DNA of 64,000 nucleotides from Candidatus Termititenax persephonae (GTDB lineage Bacteria > Margulisbacteria > Termititenacia > Termititenacales > Termititenacaceae), in NCBI GenBank assembly GCA_003864475.1, contig BGZO01000001.1:26799-90798 (forward strand), given 5' to 3'. The number at the start of each line of letters is the position of its first letter. Positions within the stretch are counted from its first letter, which is position 1. The notes beneath the pieces were generated by a model that saw only the letters and a program-made list of their open reading frames with translations, was not told the origin of the DNA and made no database searches. This document shows positions 12,373 through 51,870 of this stretch, in pieces. The translations under genes and the position numbers were made by a program.

Positions 12373-12930
12373 TCAAGGGGCAGAAGACTTATTCGACGGG
12401 AGATAGATTAAGGGCAGGAGCGGATTTTTTTGCTGGTAATAATCGGCCAAGAAGTCTGGGATGCTGGTATTTTTGTCTAAAGTTACAAACTTATAGACAG
12501 GGGTTTCTATTTCCGCGGCGTACTCGACCAGCCCGGCGGACGGCTGGGCAATGGCGGCAAAGTTGAGATAAGTAAAAGTATGCTCGTAGTGGTCAGGCTG
12601 GTCGGGCAGTAGCAGGCCGAGGCGGATTAAATATTTATGCTGGGCGATATACAGCTTCGCTTCTGCCAACTCGTTGACGGAGACCGTCCCCGTCAGCAGA
12701 ACGCTGATGTCGGCGGTGGGGTATTGGTCGGCCAGACTTTTTATGTCCGCAGCCGTGGCGTTGGCCGTGGGGTAATAGAGACAATTTCTTTTGGCTCCCG
12801 TATGCTCCGCCAGAGCCTCAATAGAGTCGACCGCCAGAATATACTCGCGTGGCCGCCAAAAATCGAGCGGCTTATCGCCCAAAGCCAGCCCCAGACTGAA
12901 CAATAATAGAAAAATAATCCCCCGCGACAT
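12373..12930 (-). CDS. hypothetical secreted protein
   Basis: The ORF runs to 13023, but Met at 12930 begins the signal-like MSRGIIFLLLFSLGLALG. Tandem with the previous secreted protein. Confidence 0.45.
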   Translation of the reverse strand: MSRGIIFLLLFSLGLALGDKPLDFWRPREYILAVDSIEALAEHTGAKRNCLYYPTANATAADIKSLADQYPTADISVLLTGTVSVNELAEAKLYIAQHKYLIRLGLLLPDQPDHYEHTFTYLNFAAIAQPSAGLVEYAAEIETPVYKFVTLDKNTSIPDFLADYYQQKNPLLPLIYLPSNKSSAP

Positions 12931-13094
12931 TCCGTTAATATATACAGATGCCAAAATATTTGCAACAAGTTTTAATTTTGGCGGGCCGAAGCTTGGGGGG
13001 AGCGGCTGGGCGGGGAGAACCAAGCCAGCCCCCTAAAACCTTGTAAAAAAGCATTGCCCGGTGTAGAATTGGGCGACTTTTTTAAGGAGTTTTT

Positions 13095-13313
13095 ATGCAA
13101 AAAGACATTCATCCTGATTATCACGAGGTCGTGGCGACTTGCGCCTGCGGCGCCCAGTTTAAGACCGGCTCGACGCTGAAAGAAATCCGCGTGGACATCT
13201 GTTCGGCCTGCCACCCGCTCTTCACGGGCAAGCAGAAGATTATGGACACCGAGGGTCGCGTAGACAAATTTATGAAAAAACTGGCCGCCGCCAAAAAGAA
13301 ACCTGCCAAGTAA
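13095..13313 (+). CDS. rpmE: 50S ribosomal protein L31
   Basis: [12 protein letters not shown]...CxxC...CxxCHP zinc ribbon, 72 aa. SD GGAG upstream. Confidence 0.9.
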
Positions 13314-13338
13314 TAGTCTGTTTTTTTAGGGAGCTGTC

Positions 13339-14442
13339 GTGGGTGAAGAAGGCGGAGATAAGACAGAGGAGCCTACGCCCCATAAATTACAGGAATTGCG
13401 GAAAAAAGGTCAGGTCGCCCATTCCAAAGAAATAACCACCGCTATTTTGTTGATTGTCGCCTACCGTACTTTCGCGGGGCAGGCGGAAAATATCTGGCTG
13501 CGTCTGCTCAATTTCGCCCAGGAAATGTTCCGGCAGATTGCCACGGCTCGGGACATTAATCTGGGTACCTTTGCCGGGCTTTTTTCTTACGGCGTGTACA
13601 CGATTTTGACCAGTATTATTGTTCTCTTGCTGGTTATCTTTGCGGTAACAATTATTGTCAGCATGGCGCAGACGCAGTTTTTGTTTTCCGGCGAGTCGTT
13701 GAAGCCCGACCTCAATAAACTCAATCCCTTGAGCGGCTTGAAACGGATTTTTTCGCTAAAGGGCTTGATTCAGATTTTAATTACGGCGGTCAAGATTATC
13801 TTGGTGGCTTGGGTAACGGTTTCGATTATCATGAGCCACATCGGCACGGTTATCAATTCCATGGTGCTGGACCCCTTCACCATCATGCTTTTTGCCGGGC
13901 AAATGGTCATGGAGATTGCCACCAAGGTGGGCTGGTTGTACATCGTGATTGCGATTTTGGATTATATGTATCAGCGTTACGAATTTAATAAGAATGCCAA
14001 GATGACCAAGCAGGAAGTCAAAGAAGAATACAAGCGCTTGGAGGGCGACCCGACCATCAAGCAGGCGCAAAAACAGAAGCAGCGCGAGATGTCCCAGAAA
14101 CGCCAGAAAGGTTCTGTTCCCGGCGCGGACGTGGTGGTAACCAATCCGGTACACTTGGCCTGCGCTGTCCGCTACAAGCCGGAGGTGGACAAGGCTCCGG
14201 TCCTGCTGGCCAAGGGGCAGCGAATCTTTGCGCAGGAGATTAAGGATATCGCCGAGGAACACAATGTGCCGATTGTGGAAAACGAGGTTTTGGCGCGGCA
14301 GATTTATGACACCACCGAGGTGGGCAATGAAGTGCCGCCGGAACTTTACCGCGCGATTGCCGAGGTTTTGGCGTTTGTCTATAAGCTGGGGCGCAACCGC
14401 GGCAAGAATAAATATAAACCAATCGTCGACAATAAGAATTAA
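13339..14442 (+). CDS. flhB: flagellar/type III secretion export apparatus protein FlhB (SctU family)
   Basis: GTG start. TEEPTPHKLQELRKKGQV N-terminus, four TM helices and the autocleavage-type motif NPVHLA (NPTH variant). Confidence 0.8.
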   Translation: MGEEGGDKTEEPTPHKLQELRKKGQVAHSKEITTAILLIVAYRTFAGQAENIWLRLLNFAQEMFRQIATARDINLGTFAGLFSYGVYTILTSIIVLLLVIFAVTIIVSMAQTQFLFSGESLKPDLNKLNPLSGLKRIFSLKGLIQILITAVKIILVAWVTVSIIMSHIGTVINSMVLDPFTIMLFAGQMVMEIATKVGWLYIVIAILDYMYQRYEFNKNAKMTKQEVKEEYKRLEGDPTIKQAQKQKQREMSQKRQKGSVPGADVVVTNPVHLACAVRYKPEVDKAPVLLAKGQRIFAQEIKDIAEEHNVPIVENEVLARQIYDTTEVGNEVPPELYRAIAEVLAFVYKLGRNRGKNKYKPIVDNKN

Positions 14443-17333: not shown

Positions 17334-17657
17334 GTGTGTATTTTCTGCCAAATAATTCGGAAAGAAATCCCCGCCGCCCCGCTTTATGAGGACGAGGAGA
17401 CGTTAATCATTCCAGACCTCAATCCGCAAGCCCCGTTGCACTGGCTGATTATGCCCAAGGCTCATGTGGAAAATCTTACCCAGGCCGCGCCGGAGCAGGT
17501 GGCCGCCTGCGTCAGGGCTATGCAAAAACTGGTCAAAGAAAAAAATATTACCGACTACCGTCTAATCGTGAATAGCGGTGCGGAAGCCGGGCAGACCGTG
17601 CCGCATCTGCATTTTCATTTGCTGTCCGGGCGCGGCTTGGGTTGGCCGCCGGGGTAA
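17334..17657 (+). CDS. HIT family protein (histidine triad nucleotide-binding)
   Basis: HIT motif HLHFHLL near the C-terminus; 107 aa. Confidence 0.8.
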   Translation: MCIFCQIIRKEIPAAPLYEDEETLIIPDLNPQAPLHWLIMPKAHVENLTQAAPEQVAACVRAMQKLVKEKNITDYRLIVNSGAEAGQTVPHLHFHLLSGRGLGWPPG

Positions 17658-17779
17658 GGCAGGCTGCGGCTCTTAGATTAAGACGCTGGCAGAGAGCGGA
17701 TTATTTGGCAGTGAGGGCGGGTGATTTGCCAATTAGCGCCAACGCTGGGTATAATTAACTCTCGGGTTTTTTGTTACAC

Positions 17780-17855
17780 GGGGATGTAGCTCAGTTGGTA
17801 GAGCACTGCGTTCGCAATGCAGGGGTCAGGGATTCGAATTCCCTCATCTCCACCA
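17780..17855 (+). tRNA. tRNA-Ala (anticodon CGC), CCA encoded
   Basis: Cloverleaf folded by hand: acceptor GGGGATG/CATCTCC with G3:U70, D-stem GCTC/GAGC, anticodon loop TTCGCAA, T-loop TTCGAAT, then ACCA. Confidence 0.85.
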
Positions 17856-17957
17856 GAAATTTCACGAGTAGGCCAGTACGCGGCGAAGATTTTAGATAAA
17901 ATCCCAGAATGGCTGGGCCGTGTTTTAAATTTTTAACATTTTACCCCGTGCGCAAAT

Positions 17958-17986
17958 TTTACATTTTTGTCAAAATGCGGTAAAAT
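17958..17986 (+). promoter_or_regulatory. sigma70-like promoter TTTACA-N17-TAAAAT upstream of rpsU
   Basis: Hexamers read directly about 35 nt upstream of the rpsU SD. Confidence 0.45.
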
Positions 17987-18022
17987 TTGGCAAGTTTTTT
18001 TACTTTTTCTAAGGAGGTTTAC

Positions 18023-18220
18023 ATGGCTTACGCTGAGGCAAGAGATAATGAAGATATCGAAAAAGTTCTGCGCCGATTCAAGAGACAGGTCAAGGACGAG
18101 AATATTCTCCAAGATTTACGTGAAAGAGAAGTGTACGAAAAGCCCTCAGAACTACGCAAGAAAGAACAACGCGAAAGAGAACGCCAAAACTACCGCCGGA
18201 TGCGTCTGGAAGAATACTAA
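18023..18220 (+). CDS. rpsU: 30S ribosomal protein S21
   Basis: ATG at 18023 is preceded by [23 protein letters not shown]...REVYEKPSE...RRMR is an S21 signature. The ORF track start at 17987 is an N-extension. Confidence 0.85.
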   Translation: MAYAEARDNEDIEKVLRRFKRQVKDENILQDLREREVYEKPSELRKKEQRERERQNYRRMRLEEY

Positions 18221-18226
18221 AACGCG

Positions 18227-19351
18227 ATGTTACTGGGGGGGCGGAGCGGATTGAAAATCCTCGACAGATACATGTTGAGCGAATTATTGATGCTTTTTGG
18301 CTTGGGTATGGCGGCTTTGGTCATTATCGGCACGATTGATTTGGTTTTCAGCTTGATTGATATGTTCGTCAATAATGGTGTACCGTTTCCCGTCGTTTTT
18401 AAAATTTTGATTTTTAAGATTCCGGCTATTATGGTGCTGTTTTTCCCGATGGCGGTGCTTTTTGCCGTGGCCATCACGCTGATTCGGATGATTACCGCCT
18501 CGGAAATCACGGCCTTGCGCGCGGGCGGCTTGTCGCTGCTGCGAATTACCGCGCCGATTGTCGGCGCGGGAGTGCTGGCGGCTTGCTTGTCTTTTGCCAA
18601 TAATGACCTGCTGACCCCTTGGGCCAACGCTGTGTCCGACGGTCTGATTGACAAGGCTGTTCTGAAAAAACCGCTGACGGATATTCTCGAAAACACTTTT
18701 TTTCGGGAGTCCGAGTCGCGTTATTTTTATATCCGCCGGATTGATAGGCGCACCGATGTCATGGAAGACATTGCGGTTTATGAGCTGACCAATAATTTTC
18801 CGCGCGTCATCACCGCCAAACGCGCTTATTGGGACGGCAGTGAGTGGCGTTTGGAGAACGGCATTATCCACAAGTATGACGAGCAGGGCGTTTTGTCTTA
18901 CCAAGGCAATTTCGCGCAGTTGAGCCTCAATATTGGGCGCAGTTTTTATAATTATTACAAGTCGCAAAAAACACCGTCCGAAATGTCCACCCAAGAATTG
19001 CGCGGGCGCATCGCGGAGCTGCGGTCGAGCGGCGTGGCGACCAGCGCTTTGCAGACCGCCTATCACTTGAAGTACTCCATGCCAGCGGCTTGTTTGATTT
19101 TTGCCCTGGTCGGCACGGCCCTGCTCTTGCTTGCCTTGGGGCATGGGCGCGATGTGTGGAGCGTGGTGGTCGCGGTTATTTTGGCGCTGCTCTCCGTGGG
19201 TTTTTATTTTTTCCTCATGGCGGCTTTTCGCGCTTGGGGACGCGGCGGCATGGTTACGCCTTTTTGGGCGGCTTGGTCGCCCAATTTTATTTACGGCTCT
19301 TTGGCGGCGGGCATCATTGGCGTGCGTAATTTTAGCAAAGGCGGGGGCTGA
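18227..19351 (+). CDS. LptF/LptG family permease (YjgP/YjgQ)
   Basis: N-terminal ILDRYMLSELL motif, six TM segments and a periplasmic beta-jellyroll region. An alternative TTG start near 18251. Confidence 0.7.
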   Translation: MLLGGRSGLKILDRYMLSELLMLFGLGMAALVIIGTIDLVFSLIDMFVNNGVPFPVVFKILIFKIPAIMVLFFPMAVLFAVAITLIRMITASEITALRAGGLSLLRITAPIVGAGVLAACLSFANNDLLTPWANAVSDGLIDKAVLKKPLTDILENTFFRESESRYFYIRRIDRRTDVMEDIAVYELTNNFPRVITAKRAYWDGSEWRLENGIIHKYDEQGVLSYQGNFAQLSLNIGRSFYNYYKSQKTPSEMSTQELRGRIAELRSSGVATSALQTAYHLKYSMPAACLIFALVGTALLLLALGHGRDVWSVVVAVILALLSVGFYFFLMAAFRAWGRGGMVTPFWAAWSPNFIYGSLAAGIIGVRNFSKGGG

Positions 19352-23726: not shown

Positions 23727-23882
23727 ATTTTTTCTCCTTCTGCTTGATTATTTTGGCCGAGAACAATTTTTGATATGCGCGTAATTCCCCGCCCAACTTA
23801 CGCACCCAGTTATAATACAATAGGTCGACCAAATTTTGCAACTATCGGCGGCGGGACAATACCAGGCGCGGTCAACGCCTAG

Positions 23883-23956
23883 TGGGCCCACTTGGACTTG
23901 AACCAAGGACCCACCGGTTATGAGCCGGTTGCTCTAACCAACTGAGCTATGGGCCC
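23883..23956 (-). tRNA. tRNA-Met/Ile2 type (anticodon CAT), elongator-like (G1-C72, A73)
   Basis: Reverse complement folds as GGGCCCA-TA-GCTC-AGTTGGTTA-GAGC-A-ACCGG-CTCATAA-CCGGT-GGGTC-CTTGG-TTCAAGT-CCAAG-TGGGCCC-A. Confidence 0.85.
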
Positions 23957-24338
23957 CAACCGACGCGGAGCGGATTATACCAGCAAAAACCGTCCACCAC
24001 AACCGATTTTATTTACGCTATTTGGCCAATGTCTCGTGCCCGCACATTGAACACAAAAATTCAATGCGTGAAATCAGCATTTTGCGTCGATAGGTTGATG
24101 TAGCTTTTTAGGCCTTGGTAATTATGTATAAATCCGCCAAAAGTGGGTATTAATGTTGGCAAAGAAGGGCAGGTATTTATGGTCAAACTCAGGCTGAAGC
24201 CGCAGAGAATAGCGCTGGAAGACATAGTGCGCCGCCAGGAAATGGCGAAATACGGTCAAGTCGTCAGCGCCTTTAAGCCTATGGTCAGCCGACGGGCGGT
24301 CAATGGCCCGACAATTGTCGCGATAGAATAATAGGGGG

Positions 24339-27300
24339 TTGGGTATGCGAGTGTGGATGTGTGAATTGACTGCTACTTCTTCTCCTTCTTCTAGATATTA
24401 TACAATGATGTCCTCCCATGGTATGTCTGGTGAAAATCTTGCGGTAATGGAAAACGCTGATGAAGACCCCAATGAAGAGGGAGTACAAATTAGTGCGAAA
24501 AAAGCGGCAACGTCTCAAGATTTATTAAAGTTTATGTTAATAGATGTTGATAAAAAAATAGAAGAGGGGAAGCTTACTCCCGAAGATATAAAATACTTTA
24601 AAGATGTCTGGGACGAGGCAAAAGATACTCCTGCCGCAAGAACGGAATTACTTAACTACATCACGCGGACAGGTGAAGAAGGTTTATTGGGAAAAGTGAT
24701 TGGCGGAGACGCGGAGACGTTTAAGGAACTCTTGGATACCGCAATAAATTCATTGCCTTCTTCAATTACTACGCAAGGGAGATTAGTGGGATATCTCACG
24801 GAGAACCAAGATTTGTTGAATGCAGTGATAGGCACAGATACAGACAAGGCAAAAAACTTTATGGAACTCTTGAGCACCGCGAAAGATAATCCTGACGCGC
24901 AAGGGAAATTGCTGGGATATCTCATAGAGCAATACAATTCAGTCAATTCAGACAATAAAAATTTGTTGAAGGCAGTGATAGGGGAAGGCACAGACAAGGC
25001 AGAGAACTTTATGAAACTTTGGGATGCCGCGAACAACAATTCTGCCGCGCGAGAGAATTTGGTGAAATATCTCACGGACAGCCAAGATTTGTTGAATGCA
25101 GTAATAGATAGGAACGGAAACAAGACAGAAAACTTTATGGAACTTTGGGATGCCACGAACAACAATTCTGCCGCGCGAGAGAATTTGGTGAAATATCTCA
25201 CGGACAGCCAAGATTTGTTGAATGCAGTGATAGATAGGAACGAAAACAAGGCAGCAAACTTTATGGAACTTTGGGATGTTGCGAAAAACAATCTTGCCAC
25301 GCAAGAAAAATTGGTAGAAAAATACGAGGGATCCTTGTTAGGAAATATTGGTGTACACAAGATTAAGGAACTCTATGAGGCAACCAAAAATTTGGACTTA
25401 CTTGGCTGCGTAAGAAGTGAATTAAATGAATTATACAATAATCCTCCTAATCCTCCTAATGCTATTTCGCTTAAAATATTTGGCATAGTTGGTAAGGACT
25501 TAAGTCAAGCCAATTTTGGCGATAACGGTCGTGTCGATGGCAAAGGCCATACTACTGGCGGCTGGGCGCTTGGCTTGGTAACTGGCGAAGACGAAGCTGG
25601 CGGTATTGAGGGCGTGATTACGGCCGAGGAATTTCTTACTTGGCATAATAGTGATATTGATGAGTTTATTCGAGATATTGTTACTCTTTTTGGAGATGAT
25701 GCGCTGGCTGCCCTCGTAACGATGTCTAAACATTTGGGTGGAGAGGCGGAAAAGAAGCTGCTCGATAGGCTAATGACTTTTTATGATAATCCAGGCGTAA
25801 CCAATGTAAGGGACCCCCACTTTGCTTCAGCGCATATTACTCAACAAATTGCCGATGGCATCAATAAAGCTAGTGAAGATGGTGAGCCAGACTTCATTGC
25901 TTTACAATTAGTCTCCAAAATGAATGACAATCAATTGACCAAGTTACTGGTGTTTATGTATCAGTGTAGTGGAAATAGCGGGCAGTCAGTTGTGAATACA
26001 ATATTAAAAATGACAGGGCAAGAATCCCCAACAAGCGATGTCGGTAATCGGTTGTTGCATCAAGCATTGGAATTATACAGTGATACAGATGACCGTAGGA
26101 ATGGAGCGCATCCAATAGTGGGGAAGGCTATAACCGATGCAATTAATGTGATAATAGCAGGTGGGAATGAGGGTGCGTATAAGGATGAGTATAAAAATCT
26201 TTGTGATTACTTTTCGCGACCGGAGAACTCTGCCCAGTTAAGAAAAGTTGTTAGGCATTGTATTGACATAGATATCCCAAAAGATAAAGGTGATACTAAC
26301 GGTGATACTACAGAGGCTCAGGCCGTAAGAAAGTTATTGCTCGACGATAGAACCCAGAGAGCCACGCTAGGTTTTCTTGATGAGGCTTATGACCAGACTG
26401 GCGGGCGGATTTGGGATAGCGATGTCAAAGATTTTTTGAGAACATGTAAAAATGATAGTGCTATAAAAGACGACAATCCAGCATTGGCAAAAGCTTTAGA
26501 TACGGTAACAAATCCGGCCAATAGGGCCAGGATGAGAGCGGGACTTCCACCAGCTAGAGAGAAGAGTACGACACCCGAACAAATAAATGGTGGGACAGGA
26601 GGGTTGCACGTTGCTGCGCCCGCCGCCACGCCCGCGCCTGTACGTACCAAGGATGAGATAAAATTGGAGAATGAGGCAAGAGTCAGTGATATTTTTTATA
26701 AGGGGTTCACTGAAGAAGATTTTAAGGCACTAAAAGATAATGGCATAAATTTAGGATTAGATTACAAAGCATTTATTAAGATGGCCTCAACACAATTCAG
26801 CCAGTTTGAGTTTAGGGCAACTGGTGGTGGGGATGCTCAAAAGAAAGTTGTTACAGACTTTTTGACGGCTTACGCAAAAGCTCTTTCTCATGGGGATACC
26901 GACAATGGTAAAACGGCGATGCGAGAAGCCGTTATGCTGTTAACGGACCATGGTTTCACCAAAGCATTCTTAGAGGCATATACATCCGCAAATTATATCG
27001 CAGGATTCTTCGACAAAGGGAGTCCTCATGCCGGGGAGCAGTACAAGGCGGACGGCACTACGAACACTCAGGCTAAGTCCTATCACTATATCGGTAGTGG
27101 TTCCACCCGGGCGGCTGTCGATGCTTTCCACGACTGGGCGAAAAATAACGGGGGGGATATAGGGAGCGGCGCCGAATCTTCTTATATGAAAGCGATAAAA
27201 GGTGGTACCCCTGTGTTTGAGGGTGCTACATTTCTTGGCATTGACGTTACGTTAAATGGGATAAAACTAAGGATTAGGCCTGATGATGCAGTAATTAGCA

Positions 27301-27458
27301 AAATAAGCGGTGATGTTGAGGGTGAGGCATGGAAAGATGCCTTGCTGACTGAACTGAGAAGAGAAACCAGAACAGAAAACATCGGGTTTACGCTTACGAT
27401 ACCAAATGAACAAGATGGTATAGTCGAAAACAAAGCCCCCCAACTAGACCTGCCCTAG
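24339..27458 (+). CDS. large hypothetical repeat protein (1039 aa), no signal peptide, low-GC codon usage
   Basis: Long ORF in an AT-rich island. Residues about 120-330 form about five 42-aa tandem repeats (LLNAVIDRNGNKTENFMELWDATNNNSAARENLVKYLTDSQD). No recognised catalytic motifs. The start codon is uncertain. Confidence 0.6.
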   Translation: MGMRVWMCELTATSSPSSRYYTMMSSHGMSGENLAVMENADEDPNEEGVQISAKKAATSQDLLKFMLIDVDKKIEEGKLTPEDIKYFKDVWDEAKDTPAARTELLNYITRTGEEGLLGKVIGGDAETFKELLDTAINSLPSSITTQGRLVGYLTENQDLLNAVIGTDTDKAKNFMELLSTAKDNPDAQGKLLGYLIEQYNSVNSDNKNLLKAVIGEGTDKAENFMKLWDAANNNSAARENLVKYLTDSQDLLNAVIDRNGNKTENFMELWDATNNNSAARENLVKYLTDSQDLLNAVIDRNENKAANFMELWDVAKNNLATQEKLVEKYEGSLLGNIGVHKIKELYEATKNLDLLGCVRSELNELYNNPPNPPNAISLKIFGIVGKDLSQANFGDNGRVDGKGHTTGGWALGLVTGEDEAGGIEGVITAEEFLTWHNSDIDEFIRDIVTLFGDDALAALVTMSKHLGGEAEKKLLDRLMTFYDNPGVTNVRDPHFASAHITQQIADGINKASEDGEPDFIALQLVSKMNDNQLTKLLVFMYQCSGNSGQSVVNTILKMTGQESPTSDVGNRLLHQALELYSDTDDRRNGAHPIVGKAITDAINVIIAGGNEGAYKDEYKNLCDYFSRPENSAQLRKVVRHCIDIDIPKDKGDTNGDTTEAQAVRKLLLDDRTQRATLGFLDEAYDQTGGRIWDSDVKDFLRTCKNDSAIKDDNPALAKALDTVTNPANRARMRAGLPPAREKSTTPEQINGGTGGLHVAAPAATPAPVRTKDEIKLENEARVSDIFYKGFTEEDFKALKDNGINLGLDYKAFIKMASTQFSQFEFRATGGGDAQKKVVTDFLTAYAKALSHGDTDNGKTAMREAVMLLTDHGFTKAFLEAYTSANYIAGFFDKGSPHAGEQYKADGTTNTQAKSYHYIGSGSTRAAVDAFHDWAKNNGGDIGSGAESSYMKAIKGGTPVFEGATFLGIDVTLNGIKLRIRPDDAVISKISGDVEGEAWKDALLTELRRETRTENIGFTLTIPNEQDGIVENKAPQLDLP
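24690..25330 (+). repeat. in-frame 126-bp tandem repeat array inside the 1039-aa gene (about 5 units; the last two, 25053-25178 and 25179-25304, are near-identical)
   Basis: Seen at DNA and protein level. Confidence 0.8.
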
Positions 27459-27713
27459 TCGCTGACGACCCTGCTAACCCTGCTCCTAACCCTGGCACTA
27501 CTGGCCCTAACCCTGCTGGTGATGGTGCTGGTGGTCCCCCCGACTCCAACACCCCTAATAGTTGAAGAAGATAAGGCGGGGAGTAATTAAAAGCACAAGA
27601 CAATCCTTGACCCGCCGCCCCCGCGTAAGGAGCGACGCGGTTTGCTACCCAGCAGAGACCAGCCGGATTAGACGGGCGCAGATAAAACAATTCAGATTGA
27701 ACGTACGAATTCC

Positions 27714-28382
27714 GTGTCGGCGCAAAAAGGTGGTAGAATCCTGAGAGTTATCGAGAATTATAATTCTGACTTCAGAGAGGAAGAACACCCGCGCAATAAT
27801 AACGGCAAGTTTTCGACCAGTTCCGGTAGTGGCAGTAGCAAATCCAAGCCGCAAAAAACAGACCGCACACAGGAGACGGGCATGGCAGACGATTTAAAGA
27901 CCAAGAAGCAAAAGCAGGAAATTATCAGCCGTTTAGATAAAGATTATATTCAAACCGCTGAGGAATTTTTTGAGAAAGCCAAAGGCAAAATCAAACAACG
28001 CAAGGAAAAAGTGTACAGAAGTATAGACAAACAAGAAGCAAAAAGAATCAAAGATGTAACTGGACTTGATGTCGAAGGTTATGAACATAAAATAATAAAT
28101 GAGGATTTTGCGCACATATTCAGACGGCATGGTAATCCCAGAAAACAAGAAAAACTTGGACAGGTTGCGGTTACAAAAGATGATTTAAAACTCATACCCG
28201 AAATAACCAAAAATTACGACTCTCTCAAATTAAGCCCTGAAACATCTGAAGGTCGTCCTGTATTGGTTTACACTAAAAAAATAGGAAATGAATATTACTA
28301 CCTTGAAACTGTTGGCGGTAAAAAGACCAGAGATTTGCGGTCAAAAAGCATGTGGATTAGAAAGACGGGAACAACCGACTGA
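27714..28382 (+). CDS. hypothetical protein, 'expressed copy' of a three-member cassette family; N-terminal module GGRILRVIENYNSDFREEEHPRNNNGKF plus variable C-terminal domain
   Basis: GTG start with no clear SD. The ORF is in the same frame as the upstream 1039-aa gene. The first about 71 nt after Lys-5 are repeated at 28590 and 28965. The C-terminal region has an HIFRRHG motif. Confidence 0.55.
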   Translation: MSAQKGGRILRVIENYNSDFREEEHPRNNNGKFSTSSGSGSSKSKPQKTDRTQETGMADDLKTKKQKQEIISRLDKDYIQTAEEFFEKAKGKIKQRKEKVYRSIDKQEAKRIKDVTGLDVEGYEHKIINEDFAHIFRRHGNPRKQEKLGQVAVTKDDLKLIPEITKNYDSLKLSPETSEGRPVLVYTKKIGNEYYYLETVGGKKTRDLRSKSMWIRKTGTTD

Positions 28383-28445
28383 TGCCTATTAGTTTCCTAA
28401 CCCTCAATCTCTACGCCCAAAGCGTGGTCGTTCCCGCTATGAATA

Positions 28446-28589
28446 TATTATACCACAAAAGGACTACAATATACATGCAAGCCCCGCGTCTCAAAGATTC
28501 CTGCTGGTAGCCACTAGCACGTCAGTTGCAGCAGTTTTTCTTTGCGGCATATTTTGCCCAAGCTATTTGAGGCCGTAAAGAAACCGCAG
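28446..28589 (+). repeat. 144-bp direct repeat R1 (R2 28821-28964; R3 29587-29705), contains a CTGCTG...CAGCAG hairpin followed by TTTTTCTTT
   Basis: Three about 90%-identical copies, each following a cassette. The stem-loop plus T-run is compatible with a weak intrinsic terminator. Confidence 0.8.
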
Positions 28590-28753
28590 GTGATAGAATC
28601 CTGAGAGTTATCGAGAATTATAATTCTGACTTCAGAGAGGAAGAACACCCGTGCAATAATGAATATTATTATCTTGAAACTGTTGGTGGTAAGAGAACCA
28701 GAGATTTAAGGCCAAAAACGATGTACATAAAAAAAACCAGAAGCAGGCACTGA
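28590..28753 (+). pseudogene. decayed cassette 2: 5-prime module (with a 1-nt deletion, TTATAATT to TTTAATT) fused directly to the last 30 codons of a cassette-1-like tail
   Basis: Aligning module copies shows a single-base deletion. Apart from that deletion it is an in-frame internal deletion derivative (..EHPCNNEYYYLETVGGKRTRDLRPKTMYIKKTRSRH). No start codon. Confidence 0.6.
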
Positions 28754-28820
28754 ATGCGCCATATTTTTCAATATGTCCCTCGCTTAAACGTCCTAGACGC
28801 TCCTGCTTCTGGCATTATCA

Positions 28821-28964
28821 ATATTATACCACAAAAGGACTAAAATATACATGCAAGCCCCGCGTCTCAAAGACTCCTGCTGGCAACCACTAGCACGTCA
28901 GCTGCAGCAGTTTTTCTTTAAGGCATATTTTGCCCAAGCTATTTGAGGCCGTAAAGAAACCGCA
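28821..28964 (+). repeat. 144-bp direct repeat R2
   Basis: See R1. Confidence 0.8.
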
Positions 28965-29487
28965 GGTGGTAGAATCCAGAGAGTTATCGAGAATTATAAT
29001 TCTGACTTCAGAGAGGAAGAACACCCGCGCAATAATGACGGCAAGTTTACGTCTGGCGGAAATGGCTCGAGCAACATAAAATCAGACAGCGATAAAACAA
29101 TCAAAAAGGATGATAATGTGAAATACGAGAAAAAATCAAAATCCAAAAAAAAAAGAAGCGGACGATGCCATAGAAAAAGTAACGAAAACAAAAGGCGAAA
29201 CTACCGTTAAAGAGCTTCGTAACGATTTGGATGAATACGAGGGAACTAATGATGTTACTTTTATTTATGGAGATGAGAAAAAAGGTCTAAAACATATTGA
29301 GGATAAGCACGGCAAAGATGTAATTCCTAAAGTTGTAGATGCAGTTGTTTACGGCGAGATAAAAAAATATGTTCGGGCAAAGAAAACCATCCACTTAGAA
29401 AAAGATGGATATGAAGCCGTATTGTCGCTTGATGAATACGGGAAAAAGAAAACTTGGCTATTAACTGGTTGGGAAATAAATGATTGA
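28965..29487 (+). pseudogene. cassette 3: 5-prime module plus alternative variable domain, split by a frameshift at an A10 tract (29145-29154); removing one A gives a continuous ORF of about 174 codons
   Basis: Frame A reads GGRIQRVIENYNSDFREEEHPRNNDGKF...KSKSKKK and frame B continues EADDAIEKV...GLKHIEDKHG...WLLTGWEIND (the ORF-track 29227..29487 piece). No start codon upstream. Confidence 0.6.
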
Positions 29488-29586
29488 TATGTGGTGTTGG
29501 GTGGAAATAGCGAGGTTTGTGCTCAACTATTCCTACGCAGTCAAAGCCTACATTTAGTCGTCAGTGACTGGGAGCCAGCACCATAT

Positions 29587-29705
29587 ATATTATACCACAA
29601 AAGGACTAAAATATACAGGCAAGCCCCGCGTCTCAAAGACTCCTGCTGGCAACCACTAGCACGTCAGTTGTAGCAGTTTTTCTTTGCGGCATATTTTGCC
29701 CAAGC
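29587..29705 (+). repeat. 144-bp-family direct repeat R3 (terminal copy, diverges after about 119 bp)
   Basis: See R1. Confidence 0.75.
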
Positions 29706-29922
29706 AACCGTCATTATTGCCGTTTCCCAAGTTGCCAAACCTGCCTGCCATGATTTGGAAATTGCAGGATATAGCTAAAATGCCTGCCGCTAAAAATGAA
29801 GTGGAAATCAAAAAACTGAAAAGATTCATGGCTTAACAATCCGTGGACTTGGCCTACACTGTCTAAGTGGAGATAAAAATAACGGCCACGACTATTTTTG
29901 AGAAAAAAAGGAGCGGCTTGAA

Positions 29923-30129
29923 ATGGTGAAAAAAATGAAAAAGAAAATTGTGTTTGATTTAGACCCCGATGAACAAAACATAGAAGACCAACTGGAGACT
30001 TTTGTGCCTGCCTCGGCTGAGACCGCTGGCGAGTGTGGTTTGCCGTACCAGACTTTTATCACAATGGTTTTGCATAAATATGTTACCGACCAATTCGTTG
30101 ACCGCAATGAGGTCAAAAAACTTTGGTAG
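29923..30129 (+). CDS. orphan RHH/BrnA-like antitoxin family protein (68 aa)
   Basis: The C-terminal GLPYQTFITMVLHKYV resembles the BrnA GIPYQTLINLYLR block. Good SD AAAGGAG. No cognate toxin ORF upstream. Confidence 0.5.
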   Translation: MVKKMKKKIVFDLDPDEQNIEDQLETFVPASAETAGECGLPYQTFITMVLHKYVTDQFVDRNEVKKLW

Positions 30130-30191
30130 ATAAAGACCGGGGCGTGAATTTTTTTGCTTCCCGCGGTTTCGCGATATGCTACAATAAACCC

Positions 30192-30425
30192 ATGTCCACC
30201 GAGAACACCGAGCGCATTTTAGCTGAACTGGCCGCCGCGCGGTTTGCGCCGCCGGGGTCAGCTTATGCCGCGCATCGGGCGGGGATATACCCTGCCTTCC
30301 AGGATTTTGTAGAAATCACGTCCCGGCATATCGCTGACCCGCGGATTTTGGCGGAGCTGGAGTTGATGGGCCAAAAACTGCAAAAAGAGACTGTGGAGAG
30401 AGGACAGCATGAGCGGCAAAATTAA
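30192..30425 (+). CDS. hypothetical small protein
   Basis: ORF MSTENTERILAELAAARF... overlaps the argC start. No family recognised. Confidence 0.3.
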   Translation: MSTENTERILAELAAARFAPPGSAYAAHRAGIYPAFQDFVEITSRHIADPRILAELELMGQKLQKETVERGQHERQN

Positions 30426-31428
30426 AATCGGCATAGTTGGCGCGACGGGGTACACCGGGGCGGAGCTTGTCCGCCTGCTCCTTGACCATCCCTTGGCGGA
30501 GATTCGCTGCCTGACGACCACCTCGGCGGCGGGGCAGGACCTCGCCGGGATTTATCCGTTTTTGCGCCCGCGTTTCTCGCAAACGCTCGTCGAGTATAAG
30601 CTGGACGAGGTTAAAAATCTGGACATGGTTTTTATCTGCCTGCCGCACGGCAAGTCTATGGAGATTGCCCCGGAACTGGTAAATGCTGGCGTAAAAGTTA
30701 TCGACCTCGGTGCGGACTTTCGTTTTCGCGACTTGGCCGCCTATGAGCAGGCCTACCAAAAACATGCCGCCCCGGAAATGAACGCGCAGGCTGTTTACGG
30801 CCTGCCGGAATATCACCGCGCCCGGCTAAAGAAAGCGCGTCTGGTCGCCAACCCGGGCTGTTACGTTACGGCGGCGACGCTGGCCTTGAAGCCGATTGTC
30901 GACGGTCTGGCGTATCTTCCCGGTTCGATTATCATCGATGCCAAATCCGGCGTGTCCGGGGCGGGGCGGGCTTTGCGGCAGGACACTCATTTCTTGGAAG
31001 TCTATACCAATTTTTCGGCCTACAAAATCGGCGCGCATCGCCATCAGCCGGAGATAGAGCAAAATATCGGCGACTCTGTGGTTTTCGTGCCGCAATTATT
31101 GCCAGTAAATAGGGGCATTTTGGCCACAATTTACGTGAAGTTGCGCGAAAAATTATCTACTGAGGACGCGCTGGCCGTTCTGCGCCAAAAATACCGGGAC
31201 GAGCCTTTTGTCCGTGTCGTGGACGAACCGCCGACGCTCAAGGACGCGCTGGGCAGTAATTACTGCCTGATTTCGGCCAAGATTGTCGGCGACGGCGGGC
31301 AGTTGGTTTTGCTGTCCGTCTTGGACAATCTGGTCAAGGGCGCGTCTGGTCAGGCCGTGCAGAATATGAATATAATGTTTGACCTGCCGGAGACTATGGG
31401 TTTGGAGAGGCCTGCTCTCAATCCGTAA
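30409..31428 (+). CDS. argC: N-acetyl-gamma-glutamyl-phosphate reductase
   Basis: KIGIVGATGYTGAELVRLL N-terminus and active-site Cys region (ANPGCYVT). Confidence 0.9.
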   Translation: MSGKIKIGIVGATGYTGAELVRLLLDHPLAEIRCLTTTSAAGQDLAGIYPFLRPRFSQTLVEYKLDEVKNLDMVFICLPHGKSMEIAPELVNAGVKVIDLGADFRFRDLAAYEQAYQKHAAPEMNAQAVYGLPEYHRARLKKARLVANPGCYVTAATLALKPIVDGLAYLPGSIIIDAKSGVSGAGRALRQDTHFLEVYTNFSAYKIGAHRHQPEIEQNIGDSVVFVPQLLPVNRGILATIYVKLREKLSTEDALAVLRQKYRDEPFVRVVDEPPTLKDALGSNYCLISAKIVGDGGQLVLLSVLDNLVKGASGQAVQNMNIMFDLPETMGLERPALNP

Positions 31429-33544: not shown

Positions 33545-33745
33545 TTATTCCGAGGCAATTTTTTCTAGTCTGGAACGTAATTTTTGGTTTGTTATTTTTA
33601 TCGGTTTTATTTTACCGTGTGGATTTTTTATAGGCCGATACGCTCCTTTTTCCAGTGCTGAATAAACATCCAACACCATTTTTTTGACAAGTTTTTCCGT
33701 TAACGGAGTGCCATCGTCAAGCGTCTCGAACGTTTTCTCAAGCAT
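33545..33745 (-). CDS. BrnA-like antitoxin (66 aa)
   Basis: DDGTPLTEKLVKKMVLDVYSAL resembles the BrnA GIPYQTLIN block. 8-nt overlap with the upstream toxin gene. Confidence 0.5.
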   Translation of the reverse strand: MLEKTFETLDDGTPLTEKLVKKMVLDVYSALEKGAYRPIKNPHGKIKPIKITNQKLRSRLEKIASE

Positions 33746-33995
33746 TTTGCAGCTCCTTTAATATTTTAATGACCTTTTTCGTCGCTTTCATAGCATGTAT
33801 TACAATTTCTTCCCCATTGCTTTTTAAAACAGTAATTACTTCAAGCGTTCGTAAAGACCTATCAAACCCAATATAAAGCAATTTTTGCGGATTTTCCGCA
33901 ATTTCAATAACTTCAATAGCATGTTCAATGACATAGATTATGTCTTTTTCGTGAATGCCATGTTTTTTAGCCGAGTCAAGTATCTTGACAGCCAT
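33738..33995 (-). CDS. BrnT-like ribonuclease toxin (start at MAVKIL; a longer start at 34040 is possible)
   Basis: AKKHGIHEKDI...LLYIGFDRSLRTLEVITV...EEIVIHAMKATKK parallels BrnT (KHGVSFEEA...IGMSSRGRLL...IRIISARKATKKE). TATAAT sits 7 nt upstream of the ATG at 33995, suggesting a leaderless transcript. Confidence 0.55.
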   Translation of the reverse strand: MAVKILDSAKKHGIHEKDIIYVIEHAIEVIEIAENPQKLLYIGFDRSLRTLEVITVLKSNGEEIVIHAMKATKKVIKILKELQNA

Positions 33996-34067
33996 GAATA
34001 TATTATAACACAGCTTGCGGCTGCTTCTAAAAATTTCCAAACAAATAGTGTATACTAACTCAAAAAT

Positions 34068-36441: not shown

Positions 36442-36514
36442 GCCCAGCCGATATGTTTTTTTAGTTCAAGCGGTTCGTTAGCCTCTGCGGGCTTCGTATG
36501 ATATACTCCTCCCC

Positions 36515-38236
36515 ATGAGAATTTCCCAGATGCTGCTGCCGACACTGCGCGAGGACCCCGCGGATGCCGAGATTATCAGCCACAAATTGCTCGTGCGCGC
36601 GGGGCTGATTCAGAAGGCCGCCGCGGGTATTTACAGTTATTTGCCTCTGGGGTACCGCGTCATCCGCAAGGTCGAGAATATCATCCGCGCCGAGATGAAT
36701 AGGGCGGGGGCGCAGGAAGTTTTGTTGCCTGTGGTCGTTCCGGCGGAGCTTTGGCAGCAGTCGGGACGCTGGGAAAAATACGGCAAAGAGCTGCTGCGTT
36801 TCAAGGACCGCAAGGACGCGGACTATTGTCTGGGACCGACGCACGAGGAAGTTATCACGTCTCTGGCGCGGTCGTTCATTCATTCGTACAGGCAGTTGCC
36901 GCTCAATCTTTATCAGATTCAAACCAAGTTTCGCGACGAAATCCGCCCGCGCTTTGGTCTGATGCGTGGCCGCGAGTTTATTATGAAAGACGCATATTCT
37001 TTTCACGCTTCGCCGGAGTCGCTCGATGCCGAATACCAAAATATGCGCGAGACGTACTGCCGCATTTTTACGGCCTGCGGTTTGCAATACAAAATAGTGC
37101 AGGCGGACAGCGGTAATATCGGCGGCTCGGTCTCCCAGGAATTTATGGTGCTGGCGGAGAACGGCGAGGACGGCCTCTTGTCCTGTGCCAAGTGCGATTA
37201 TTCTGCCAACCTTGAGGCGGCTGTCTCCCATGTCGATATTCCGCGCGGCGGCCAGGCTTCACCTGCCGTTACGGAAGCCGTCCGCGAAATCTCCACGCCC
37301 CAGCGGAAATCTATCGAAGAAGTCTCCGCGTTTTTGCAAGTCGCGCCGGAAAAGTTAATCAAGACGCTGGTTTATTATTATAAGAAAAATGCCCGAGAGG
37401 ATTATGTCGTGGTCTTATTGCGCGGCGGCGACCAGCTCAATGAGATTAAGCTGAAAAATTACCTCGGCGCGGATGTGGTATTGCCGGCGGAGGACAGCGC
37501 GGTCGAAAAAATTACGGGTGTCGAGCCAGGTTTTTGCGGCCCCGTGGGCTTGACCAAGGCACGGATTGTGGCGGACGAGCTGGTTAAGGCCGGCGGCGCG
37601 GGCGTAACCGGAGCGAATAAAAAAGATACGCATTTGCTCAATGTCGTGCCGGGGCGGGATTTTGCGCTGACCGAGACGGCGGATTTGCGTCTGGCGCGTC
37701 CCGGCGAAAAATGTCCGCATTGCGGCGCACCGCTGGAGGCTGTCCGCGGCATCGAAGTGGGGCATATTTTTAAGCTGGGGACGAGGTACTCCGAGGCCAT
37801 GCAGGCGGAATATCTCGACCAGTCCGGCGTGAGCCGCCCTTTCCTCATGGGCTGTTATGGCATTGGCGTGGGGCGTACAGTGGCGGCGGCAGTCGAACAG
37901 CACTTTGACGACAGTGGCATTGTCTGGCCGCAAGCCTTGGCTCCGTATCATTGCGTGGTCATGCCCGCCGCGGCGCGGGACCAGGGGCAGCTGGCGGTGG
38001 CGGAAAAAATTTATCAAGAGTTGCTGGCCGCCGGAGTGGAAGTTCTCCTTGACGACCGCGACGAGCGGATTGGCGTAAAATTAAAAGACATGGAGTTGAT
38101 GGGCATTGCCAGCCGGGTCGTGGTCGGCAAGGCTTTGAGCGAGGGCAAGGTGGAATTCCGCCTGCGTCAGGCCAAGGACAATGAAATGTTCCCGCTGGCC
38201 GAGGCGGGCAAAAAAGTTTTAGAGAGACTGGCATGA
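36515..38236 (+). CDS. proS: proline-tRNA ligase (bacterial type with editing domain)
   Basis: 573 aa with class II aaRS motifs and a ProRS N-terminus MRISQMLLPTLRE. Confidence 0.9.
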   Translation: MRISQMLLPTLREDPADAEIISHKLLVRAGLIQKAAAGIYSYLPLGYRVIRKVENIIRAEMNRAGAQEVLLPVVVPAELWQQSGRWEKYGKELLRFKDRKDADYCLGPTHEEVITSLARSFIHSYRQLPLNLYQIQTKFRDEIRPRFGLMRGREFIMKDAYSFHASPESLDAEYQNMRETYCRIFTACGLQYKIVQADSGNIGGSVSQEFMVLAENGEDGLLSCAKCDYSANLEAAVSHVDIPRGGQASPAVTEAVREISTPQRKSIEEVSAFLQVAPEKLIKTLVYYYKKNAREDYVVVLLRGGDQLNEIKLKNYLGADVVLPAEDSAVEKITGVEPGFCGPVGLTKARIVADELVKAGGAGVTGANKKDTHLLNVVPGRDFALTETADLRLARPGEKCPHCGAPLEAVRGIEVGHIFKLGTRYSEAMQAEYLDQSGVSRPFLMGCYGIGVGRTVAAAVEQHFDDSGIVWPQALAPYHCVVMPAAARDQGQLAVAEKIYQELLAAGVEVLLDDRDERIGVKLKDMELMGIASRVVVGKALSEGKVEFRLRQAKDNEMFPLAEAGKKVLERLA

Positions 38237-39690
38237 AAGTCTATCTCGCGGGTTTTAATATTGACTCCGAAGTCATTGCGGACTTGCGAGGGGACAGTCG
38301 GCGTTTGGACATCACGCCGGAGACGCTTTCCGCCGCCTATGCGCGTATCTCCCGCGACCCGCGCCCGGTCAATGAATTGCGCCGCGCGGCGCGCGCCGAG
38401 GTGGAAAAAGCGCGTCAGTCCAATCAAGCGATTATTTTTGGTCTCGGGCATAGTTCCGTTGCTGAGCACGCGGTGTTTAACTTTGATGTGCTGGATTTGA
38501 GCCGCCGTGCCATGGAGGAATTAGAAAAATTTCGGCTCTGCTCTTTCACGGAAAAGTCCCAGCGTTATATTACTTTGGACAGCGCTTATTACACGCCGCC
38601 GGAGTTAAGAGCCACGCGCTTTGAGCCGCTTTTTCACGCGCAGGTCAAACAACAGAACGAGTTGTACGGTGCGTTATTGGACAGGCTGAAAGCTTATGTT
38701 TTGCACAGGCACAGTGATTTGGCTGCTGACCCGAAGAACAAAAATTTGCTGGAAGGTTATGCCAAAGAGGACGCACGCTACATTACCTCGCTGGCGACTT
38801 TTTCGCAGGCAGGCATGACGGTCAATGCCCGCAATCTGGAAAAGATGCTGCGGCGTTTTGCCTCCAGTCCTTGTCCGGAAATAAATAATCTCGGCACGGC
38901 CTTGCATGCCTTGGTCAAAGATATCGCGCCGTCGATTATCAAGTACCCGGGAGCCAACGCTTATGACCGCGACACATATCGCGAATTGGCTGAATACACG
39001 CAAAAAACAGCCAATGTTTTTGGCATAACTTCACGAAAAACCAAGGCATGTGCCTTGCTGGATTATACCAAGGGCGGAGACGATAAGATTTTGACCGCCT
39101 TGGCTGTCAAATCTGCCAATCTAGATTGGCGGTCGTCCACCCGGCTGGTCAAGAAGCTGAAAAAATCCCAGAAAAAAGAGATGTTCAGACTTTGCGTCAA
39201 GAACATGCAGGCTTGGGACCAGATGCTCCGGGAGTTTGAATTGGTGGATTTGACTTTTGAATTGGTCGTGTCGGCGAGTTGTTTTGCCCAGTTGAAACGC
39301 CACCGCCTGGCCACTTTACTGTCCGCCGACTATGACCCCGCCCTAGGTTTGCGTGTGCCGTCGGCGATTGAGGCGGTCGGTCTGGCGGAAGAGTTTGTCC
39401 GGGTGGCGGAGGCGAGCGCCGAATTGTCCGCCGAGATTGGGCAGGAATTTCCTCGGGCGGCGGGTTATCTCCTGACCAATGCCCATCAGCGGCGCGTGAT
39501 TTGCCGCGTCAATCTGCGCGAGCTTTACCACATCTCCAGACTGCGCGAGGACGCGCATGCCCAATGGGACATTCGGGAAATCACGGCACAGATGACGGCT
39601 CTGGCCAGAAAAGTCCTGCCCCTGACCGCCTCTTTTATCGGCGGCAAGGATGCCTGCTCGGAATTGCGGCGCAGGCAGATTACAACTTGA
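38233..39690 (+). CDS. thyX: FAD-dependent thymidylate synthase ThyX, tandem-domain (485 aa)
   Basis: The first half carries the ThyX signature ([10 protein letters not shown]...SFTEKSQRY, i.e. RHR/S...SxRY-type). The second half keeps RHRLAT but is degenerate. Twice the usual ThyX length. Confidence 0.6.
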
Positions 39691-41993: not shown

Positions 41994-42263
41994 ATGGCAG
42001 ATGGCGAAACTTATTCTTTTGAGTTCCTATCTAGCGAAATGACAGTAACTCGCAAGGGCGGCGAATTTTTCCTAGACAGTAATACTCATCCCGCCAGTAA
42101 AGATTTTATAATTGCTTTCATGAGAAATCAATTTATAGCAGAATTTATAGTAGCCAAAGAACAAAATAGAGAACAGGAATTATTGGATAAATTACGAAAT
42201 ATGCAACAACCTGCACAGGCTGTACAAGACAATCAGGCAATGAAGCAAGCTCTGTCCCATTAA
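41994..42263 (+). CDS. hypothetical protein (89 aa), AT-rich
   Basis: ORF in a low-GC islet. No family recognised. Confidence 0.35.
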   Translation: MADGETYSFEFLSSEMTVTRKGGEFFLDSNTHPASKDFIIAFMRNQFIAEFIVAKEQNREQELLDKLRNMQQPAQAVQDNQAMKQALSH

Positions 42264-42332
42264 ATTGACTTTTTAGCCGTATATATGTAAAAAACAGGGT
42301 ATAAGTTAGATAATGAATTTACGGGAGTTACA

Positions 42333-51845: not shown

Positions 51846-51870
51846 TTGCCGCGCAGACAAGGGGATTTTT

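Follow-up and report, generated by a model that had tools for sequence, protein, structure and literature searches.

An AT-rich block in front of the arginine operon

The DNA analyzed here is a 64,000-nt stretch of Candidatus Termititenax persephonae, a termite-gut Margulisbacteria symbiont (contig BGZO01000001.1, positions 26,799 to 90,798, hereafter ‘the window’). Between a tRNA-Met gene and argC, it carries an AT-rich block that holds a giant repeat-containing gene, a family of cassettes built around direct repeats, and a small open reading frame (ORF). The locus raises the question of whether this block is one genomic island that entered beside the tRNA and later decayed, as an earlier note on the same DNA proposed, or a region with a different history. 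We consider it probable, short of certain, that the block is a composite variable region which, in the Termititenax lineage, is anchored 5′ of the arg operon, and not one element integrated at tRNA-Met. Three parts can be distinguished. (i) Positions 24143–27458, perhaps extending to 27565, would form a two-gene module that occupies the same position in other Termititenax-clade genomes. (ii) Positions 27628–29700 would be the residue of C-terminal effector modules from a polyvalent protein of a phage or conjugative element, each unit consisting of an inter-domain linker (the ‘leader’) followed by an RNase domain of the BECR fold. (iii) A small ORF with a weak resemblance to CopG would close the block on the side of argC.

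Composition and right boundary

In 500-nt windows, GC content falls from 0.51–0.55 at 22.7–24.0 kb to 0.37–0.50 at 24.0–30.25 kb and is back at 0.54–0.58 by 30.0–31.2 kb; in 1-kb bins from 24 to 30 kb, it runs 0.43, 0.42, 0.44, 0.49, 0.40, and 0.40. The block as a whole has a GC of ~0.42, against a mean of ~0.52 for the remaining window, and the flanks of roughly 57% GC described in the earlier note were set too high, as only the immediate right flank reaches 0.56–0.58. The drop sits at synonymous sites: GC at third codon positions (GC3) is 0.41 in the giant ORF, 0.32 in the PBECR3 gene, and 0.28 in the PBECR1-like domain, compared with 0.63–0.69 in the flanking genes, and GC at second positions of the giant ORF (GC2, 0.385) stays within the range of the flanks (0.33–0.44). 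After correction for composition, the tetranucleotide correlation with the rest of the window is 0.61–0.67 for 3-kb windows inside the block and 0.85–0.96 elsewhere, making the block the strongest outlier of the 64 kb; between the giant ORF and the cassette part, the correlation is only 0.54, i.e., the block is heterogeneous internally. The fall in GC and the shift in codon usage, first seen by eye, are thus confirmed by computation, and the giant ORF, the repeated cassettes, and the small CopG-like ORF all lie where the earlier note had placed them.

To the right, homology with related genomes starts abruptly. In L001 (T. aidoneus), L002, and L003, it begins at window positions 30186–30192 and continues rightward through the arg block (tblastx), and the conserved small ORF that starts there is where native, syntenic sequence sets in and the block ends. 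This ORF, which has no family assignment, may serve the arg operon as a leader or regulator.

Position relative to argC and to tRNA-Met

A genome scan with ArgC retrieved four related genomes at 71–78% identity, and the comparison of gene order covers the right junction of the block. At the position of the giant ORF, in front of the small ORF and argC, there is a 1376-aa ORF in L002 and a 1001-aa ORF in L001. Both are AT-rich relative to their own flanks, with GC of 0.41–0.43 versus 0.46–0.52 and GC3 of 0.36–0.41 versus 0.51–0.58. The idea that relatives would lack the block altogether finds no support in these two genomes. The L002 protein is homologous to the window protein over the C-terminal ~490 aa (26% identity, E 3e-32) and also at the extreme N-terminus. 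The L001 protein was considered as a distant member of the same family and rejected (BLASTP E 0.26, hhalign probability 1.5%).

The order in L001 and L002 is block A (window 36.5–39.7 kb), giant ORF, arg block, and block D (window 51.8–56.2 kb), while in the window the arg block is separated from D by block A together with ~12 kb of additional sequence. The left neighbors therefore differ between genomes because of rearrangement, and it appears from this comparison that the junction between giant ORF and argC is conserved, whereas that between tRNA-Met and the giant ORF is lineage-specific. Conserved synteny, which the earlier note named as an argument against an insertion, is found for the right junction only. 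In L001 and L002, the 10 kb upstream of argC contain no tRNA gene. An empty site, with the tRNA joined to the flank, was not seen in these two genomes, and the nearest relatives, 78% identical in ArgC, are too distant to reveal a recent one. The variable space in front of the arg genes contains BrnT/BrnA in L002 and MNT/HepT in L001; toxin-type genes, then, gather repeatedly around the same operon in several genomes.

The proposed link to tRNA-Met did not survive inspection of its orientation. Elements that target tRNA genes integrate at the tRNA 3′ end. The tRNA-Met gene is on the minus strand with its 3′ end pointing away, so the block lies on its 5′, or promoter, side. No integrase or transposase was found by Pfam among plus-strand ORFs of at least 60 aa plus one 42-aa ORF at 23.9–30.4 kb, in agreement with the earlier note, and scans of the main ORFs with PADLOC, NCBIfam, and PHROGs added no integrase. 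The absence of an attachment (att) duplication, also noted by eye, is upheld both by a repeat search and by a comparison of tRNA-Met ± 30 nt with the sequence to its right, which has no match longer than 11 nt, near the right boundary included. One short repeat at 23974, ATTATACCAGCAAA, resembles the start of each inter-unit spacer described below (14-nt similarity) and was considered as an att site. It was rejected: the minus strand reads TGGTATAAT, a consensus extended −10 box correctly placed for the tRNA, and short matches of such quality are also expected by chance. Judged by its sequence and spacing, the box is probably the tRNA promoter.

The leader–RNase units

The second part of the block is organized around an 88-nt leader present in three copies that are 85–97% identical and share a 49-nt core identical in all of them, where none would be expected by chance. 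The leader encodes NSDFREEEHPRNNxGKF, GGRILRVIENYNSDFREEEHPRNN(N/D)GKF. Its three copies precede, in order, an RNase gene of the PBECR3 family, the 3′ end of a different PBECR3 allele, and a PBECR1-like domain. The two PBECR3 alleles are 76% identical at their 3′ ends. Domains of the PBECR type have been described as solo or polyvalent effectors of phages and conjugative elements, often fused to MuF or portal domains (PMC5512222).

The three units differ in their state of preservation. Cassette 2 has an internal deletion and no start codon. Cassette 3 has no start codon upstream of its leader and carries a +1 frameshift in an A10 run at 29145–29154; the source assembly is a draft, and homopolymer frameshifts may be assembly errors. 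The domain of cassette 3 scores below the threshold of PF18809 in Pfam (21.4 bits versus a cut-off of 27.6), and its homologues, reaching E 2e-36, include one that carries PF18809 and are often N-terminal domains of HExxH polyvalent proteins. Both of these units would be dead, whereas the first would survive in domesticated form, as a solo gene equipped with a ribosome-binding site and a start codon.

Upstream of cassette 1, the frame of the leader is interrupted by stops at 27456 (TAG), 27588 (TAA), and 27669 (TAG, which is CAG in L085). What remains of an upstream ORF, uninterrupted in L085, lies at 27628–27713 (blastn to L085:66-147, 81%). A metagenome scan for the leader motif gave three distant matches, two of them informative, and revealed no parent gene. 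In L087, the motif ..SDFKES(D/E)HPR..GKF occurs three times between the domains of a 1186-aa polyvalent protein. In L088, it heads a 192-aa ORF beside a methylase-like ORF, in a setting that looks phage-like by eye. A scan of viral contigs returned no relatives, and defense-system models in PADLOC gave no matches.

The solo PBECR3 gene is the best preserved component of the array. It scores 62.9 bits against PF18812 (cut-off 30), and its homologues, almost all from Margulisbacteria, are ~160 aa long and begin at the position of the ATG at 27882. Compared with the closest homologue (L083), the ratio of nonsynonymous to synonymous substitution rates (dN/dS) is 0.13 with a dS of 0.52, and the His, Asp, Lys, and Glu positions invariant in the family are all retained. 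AlphaFold predicts the ~165 residues after the leader with confidence, with a predicted local distance difference test score (pLDDT) above 90 for the core and a disordered leader. Relatives conserve the solo domain, with a leader that is degenerate, out of frame, truncated, or missing; the functional unit would accordingly be the solo RNase, with the leader a vestige of an ancestral fusion. Elsewhere, the surroundings of PBECR3 genes vary: they lie between tRNA-Leu and fur, follow a LolA-like gene, or adjoin murC or polA, and their frequent location at contig ends suggests multiple copies. The leader–PBECR3 unit lies just 3′ of tRNA-Leu and upstream of a fur-like gene in L081 (30–120 and 162–812) and L090 (121–207 and 528–1157). 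L081 also encodes a 78-aa CdiA_C fragment at 8465–8701. Under purifying selection, PBECR3 looks functional and is the only clearly intact toxin-type gene in the block; the predicted activity would be that of a cytoplasmic endoribonuclease used in conflict or stress.

The units are separated by a spacer of ~120–200 nt that is 95% identical between copies and, within the window, confined to the array. It contains the start of a short ORF, MQAPRLKDSCWQPLARQLQQFFF.AYFA..., whose protein sequence is conserved in L081 and L090, where it follows PBECR3 (tblastn and alignment), and which is broken in all three window copies; in copy B, it is open for 31 codons and then reaches a TGA after a 1-nt insertion relative to L081 and L090. 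A reading of this ORF as a MuF N-terminus was considered and is not supported by PHROG, Pfam, and phage tblastn searches, none of which gave a match. The 120-nt spacer was likewise considered as a structured RNA or an attC-like element and rejected, with a folding z-score of +0.35 and only tRNA found by Rfam. On the minus strand, every spacer has a predicted promoter-like site (28494–28466, 28870–28842, and 29636–29608) composed of TTGAGA, 17 nt, TATTTT or TATTGT, and then GTGGTATAAT. If used, these sites could drive transcripts antisense to the 3′ ends of the PBECR genes. Recombination through the near-identical leader and spacer would have multiplied and reshuffled the units.

The giant gene and its 62-aa partner

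The product of the 1039-aa ORF matches NO2_0038 of Candidatus Termititenax persephonae exactly. When 1.84 billion representative proteins were searched exhaustively with HMMER, the family came to only three members, i.e., the protein itself, P0015, and P0016. Its C-terminal half (~490 aa) is conserved at ~26–32% identity with the two relatives and includes the alignment-invariant motifs KVVRHC.D.D and TGG.IWDSDV; the genes flanking the block are 66–90% identical to those of L001 and L002. Tandem Repeats Finder (TRF) reports 24994–25320 as a repeat of period 126 with 90% matches. No family was assigned by Pfam, PADLOC, or NCBIfam, and a weak tape-measure match in PHROG (E 0.0034) is attributed to the helical repeats. 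AlphaFold, run with three sequences, gives an all-helical prediction with a pLDDT of 47, a model unfit for fold comparison. The giant ORFs hold the same low GC3 (0.41) whatever the GC3 of the host. We infer that the gene is a rapidly evolving or repeatedly replaced accessory gene, and the protein is perhaps a surface or effector protein of this spirochete-attached symbiont. Having essentially no counterpart beyond the clade, it can be regarded as a candidate for a symbiosis or surface factor.

A 62-aa ORF stands immediately upstream of the giant gene in three genomes (the window, L002, and L092), and the pair is therefore regarded as a two-gene module. In L092, the P0016 gene is followed at 4523–4553 by an ORF starting MQQVNIHAAK, which may resemble antitoxins of the Phd/YefM type; the contig ends there.

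Past the 3′ end of the giant gene, the +1 frame of the GC-rich segment 27459–27565 encodes a tail rich in Pro, Gly, and Asn, comparable to the Pro-rich end of its L002 homologue. The annotated ORF may therefore have been shortened by a frameshift in the C6 run at ~27438–27443, in which case its true end would be at 27565. A fusion of the giant ORF with cassette 1, which is in the same reading frame, was considered and rejected: three stops intervene, the homologues (L002 and P0016) stop at the same place, and the GC-rich tail makes better sense as the +1-frame Pro-rich extension.

The CopG-like ORF

The 68-aa ORF at the right end of the block was described in the earlier note as an orphan antitoxin. 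The ORF is present and no partner toxin is seen beside it, nor does tblastn find a BrnT remnant in the window; its identity as a CopG/BrnA-type antitoxin is weak, as the Pfam match falls well below its cut-off (15.2 versus 28 bits). It has no similarity to the BrnA of L002 and no match in PDB or NCBIfam.

Features of the locus and its neighborhood

Table 1. Coordinates of the features in and around the AT-rich block (window positions unless a genome handle is given).
Feature	Coordinates	Strand	Remarks
tRNA-Met(CAT)	23882–23956	−	ARAGORN; Rfam tRNA 72.8 bits; 5′ end toward the block; outside the block
Extended −10 box	23974–23988	−	ATTATACCAGCAAAA = TGGTATAAT on the minus strand; 18 nt upstream of the tRNA 5′ end; repeat family D7
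62-aa ORF	24143–24331	+	52% identity to L002:1838-2119 and L092:184-426; no Pfam match
Giant ORF, 1039 aa	24339–27458	+	NO2_0038; ATG start at 24345 gives 1037 aa
Tandem 126-nt (42-aa) repeats in giant ORF	24772–25371	+	Repeat families D2, D3
GC-rich stretch (0.56)	27459–27713	+	Stop-interrupted; three-frame translations
Leader copy 1	27728–27815	+	Encodes GGRILRVIENYNSDFREEEHPRNNNGKF; family D4; predicted disordered, pLDDT <50
Solo PBECR3 RNase gene, 166 aa	27882–28382	+	GGAG at 27872–27875; ATG 27882
Spacer copy A	28445–28587	+	Family D1; short ORF from ATG 28474, MQAPRLKDSCW, TAG at codon 12
Cassette 2	28588–28753	+	Leader fused without a gap to the final 32 codons of another PBECR3 allele; families D4, D6
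Spacer copy B	28821–28963	+	Family D1, 95% identical to copy A; short ORF from ATG 28850
Cassette 3	28964–29487	+	Leader and PBECR1-like domain; TTG ORF 29227–29487 (86 aa) spans the domain
Spacer copy C	29587–29700	+	Family D1; short-ORF start mutated to AGG at 29616; no leader after it
68-aa ORF, CopG/BrnA-type antitoxin-like	29923–30129	+	Pfam PF12441 (CopG_antitoxin), E 0.037, 15.2 bits versus cut-off 28
Conserved small ORF upstream of argC	30186–30425	+	tblastx 50–56% identity to L001, L002, L003; GC3 0.63
argC	30409–31428		Followed by argJ, argB, and the ornithine carbamoyltransferase gene
Rearranged block A	36497–39666		L001 2132–5295; L002 1–1123
Rearranged block D	51850–56232		L001 18290–21017; L002 13200–17570

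Other AT-rich patches occur in the window. At 33545–34040, ~0.5 kb with a GC of 0.36–0.40 separates argB from the ornithine carbamoyltransferase gene and encodes, on the minus strand, two small ORFs (100 and 66 aa), of which the longer has a sub-threshold match to DUF4258 (E 0.0017). The patch looks like a small toxin–antitoxin-type insertion within the arg cluster, and it is read as an insertion because the two flanking genes are nearly adjacent in L002 and L003. In L001, ~2 kb that has no counterpart in the window lies between argJ and argB (12387–14407). A further low-GC patch at 41994–43337 (0.405 for 42–43 kb) contains ORFs of 89 and 334 aa, whose sole match is a weak one to DUF4116 (E 0.001), and may be additional accessory content. 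GC is also low (0.44–0.49) at 17500–18750, around tRNA-Ala(CGC) at 17780–17855.

Alternative explanations

Several results weigh against a composite region with polyvalent-protein residues, and they bear on different parts of it. A full-length parent gene carrying the leader was found neither in the 64-kb window nor in the protein database, the block gave no portal, MuF, or virion match in Pfam or PHROG, and no phage genes lie nearby. The best PDB fold matches of PBECR3, i.e., CdiA-CT RNases of contact-dependent inhibition (CDI) systems, BrnT, and HigB, are weak (E 0.046). No conserved neighbor that could act as an antitoxin accompanies PBECR3 across genomes, and a solo RNase toxin without a visible antitoxin is left unexplained. 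The near identity of leaders and spacers, set against only 76% identity of the PBECR3 3′ ends, could mean that cassette exchange is still active, not fossil. As for the first part, homology of the giant ORF at the same site in L001 to the window protein is undetectable, the left junction has no comparable relative, and equal GC3 in hosts of different GC3 fits repeated import as well as it does vertical descent.

An island acquired in one event beside tRNA-Met, its integrase and att sites since lost, would account for a compositional anomaly that is strong and sharply bounded, for a tRNA 380 bp from the left edge, and for lineage-specific content, and the PBECR3 unit does lie just 3′ of tRNA-Leu in two other Margulisbacteria contigs. 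We regard this origin as very unlikely: the block is at the 5′ side of tRNA-Met, neither an integrase nor a tRNA-derived repeat accompanies it, its two main components differ in tetranucleotide signature, and both the argC junction and the giant ORF are common to L002, which has no tRNA within 10 kb. What stands of the island proposal is the foreign-looking composition, the lineage-specific content, and the partly decayed toxin-type cassettes; what falls is the link to the tRNA. It is similarly very improbable that no horizontal transfer took place and that these are native genes, AT-rich as weakly expressed or fast-evolving genes that escape the driver of high GC3. Such genes would keep their position in relatives, differ at synonymous sites, and be AT-rich against their own flanks in other genomes too, all of which is the case for the giant ORF. 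The tetranucleotide signature differs even after correction for composition, though, and the PBECR units bear the linker of phage polyvalent proteins and have unrelated chromosomal neighborhoods in other genomes; the giant ORF that L001 carries at this site, moreover, is not homologous, and further AT-rich micro-insertions nearby, also with toxin-like ORFs, are absent from relatives.

An active polymorphic-toxin system is unlikely but deserves the more careful hearing. The units would then be silent or alternative C-terminal RNase cassettes that recombine via leader and spacer into an expressed delivery gene elsewhere, encoding a portal/MuF-like or other secreted protein, and so change which toxin reaches competitors or the host spirochete. 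The similarity of the leaders, with their invariant core, and of the spacers fits such a system, as these sequences flank unrelated PBECR3 and PBECR1 domains and two PBECR3 alleles; so do the missing start codons of cassettes 2 and 3, the uninterrupted ORF that precedes the leader in L085, and the PBECR3 homologues at contig ends in several assemblies, which suggest multiple copies. Speaking against it, no immunity ORF follows any module, with only ~200 nt between modules, and the conserved spacer ORF is broken in every copy. No other T. persephonae protein with the leader was found in the protein database, relatives keep the solo domain and not an intact leader, and modules 2 and 3 have disabling lesions within them. 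A more elaborate version is the least probable of the explanations considered here: the array would work as an immunity-less cassette system in which the spacer ORF (MQAPRLKDSCWQPLARQL...) and the linker serve as a portable handle, alternative BECR RNase heads are attached by recombination or by recoding across a single in-frame TGA, and the whole is coupled genetically to the giant effector and its 62-aa partner for use toward the spirochete host or competitors. The composite variable region is thus the explanation we retain, with the reservations listed above. Composition alone misleads at this locus: an apparent tRNA-linked island is better described as a variable hotspot whose position before the arg operon is conserved.

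Comparison with known systems

Four known systems offer a useful framework for the block. Like tRNA-associated integrative islands, it has atypical composition, accessory content, and a tRNA near one edge. Unlike them, it lies on the wrong side of the tRNA, without an integrase and without an att repeat, and its distal junction and main gene are kept in relatives that have no tRNA there. Type II toxin–antitoxin modules of variable regions, such as BrnT/BrnA and MNT/HepT, are carried by relatives in the same inter-block space, and the window combines a weak CopG-like ORF with putative BECR-fold RNases; here, however, no recognizable toxin–antitoxin pair is present, the CopG match is below threshold, and PBECR3 has no conserved neighbor.

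Orphan toxin-cassette arrays (CdiA-CT/CdiI orphans, Rhs, MafB, and MuF toxins) share with the block a conserved pre-toxin segment in front of unrelated C-terminal nuclease domains, and their modules are likewise in tandem and without start codons of their own; the predicted PBECR3 fold would also resemble that of CdiA-CT RNases. In contrast to such arrays, there are no immunity genes here, neither the window nor the proteome search yielded a full-length delivery gene, and two of the three modules are internally damaged.

The same domain families are known from C-terminal PBECR effector modules in the portal/MuF polyvalent proteins of phages (Iyer et al. 2017, PMC5512222), and solo versions have been described as well. 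The (D/N)SDF(K/R)E.(E/D)HPR..GKF linker is the one found between domains of the 1186-aa polyvalent protein of L087. Unlike such proteins, the units of T. persephonae come with no portal, MuF, or virion genes and form a chromosomal tandem array beside housekeeping genes, and one of them is a stand-alone gene under purifying selection. While these findings overturn nothing in current understanding, they give concrete testable genes in a lineage of uncultured termite-gut symbionts that has no characterized ones. A linker-plus-RNase module typical of the polyvalent proteins of phages and conjugative elements is found here on the chromosome, apparently multiplied through its linker and in part domesticated.

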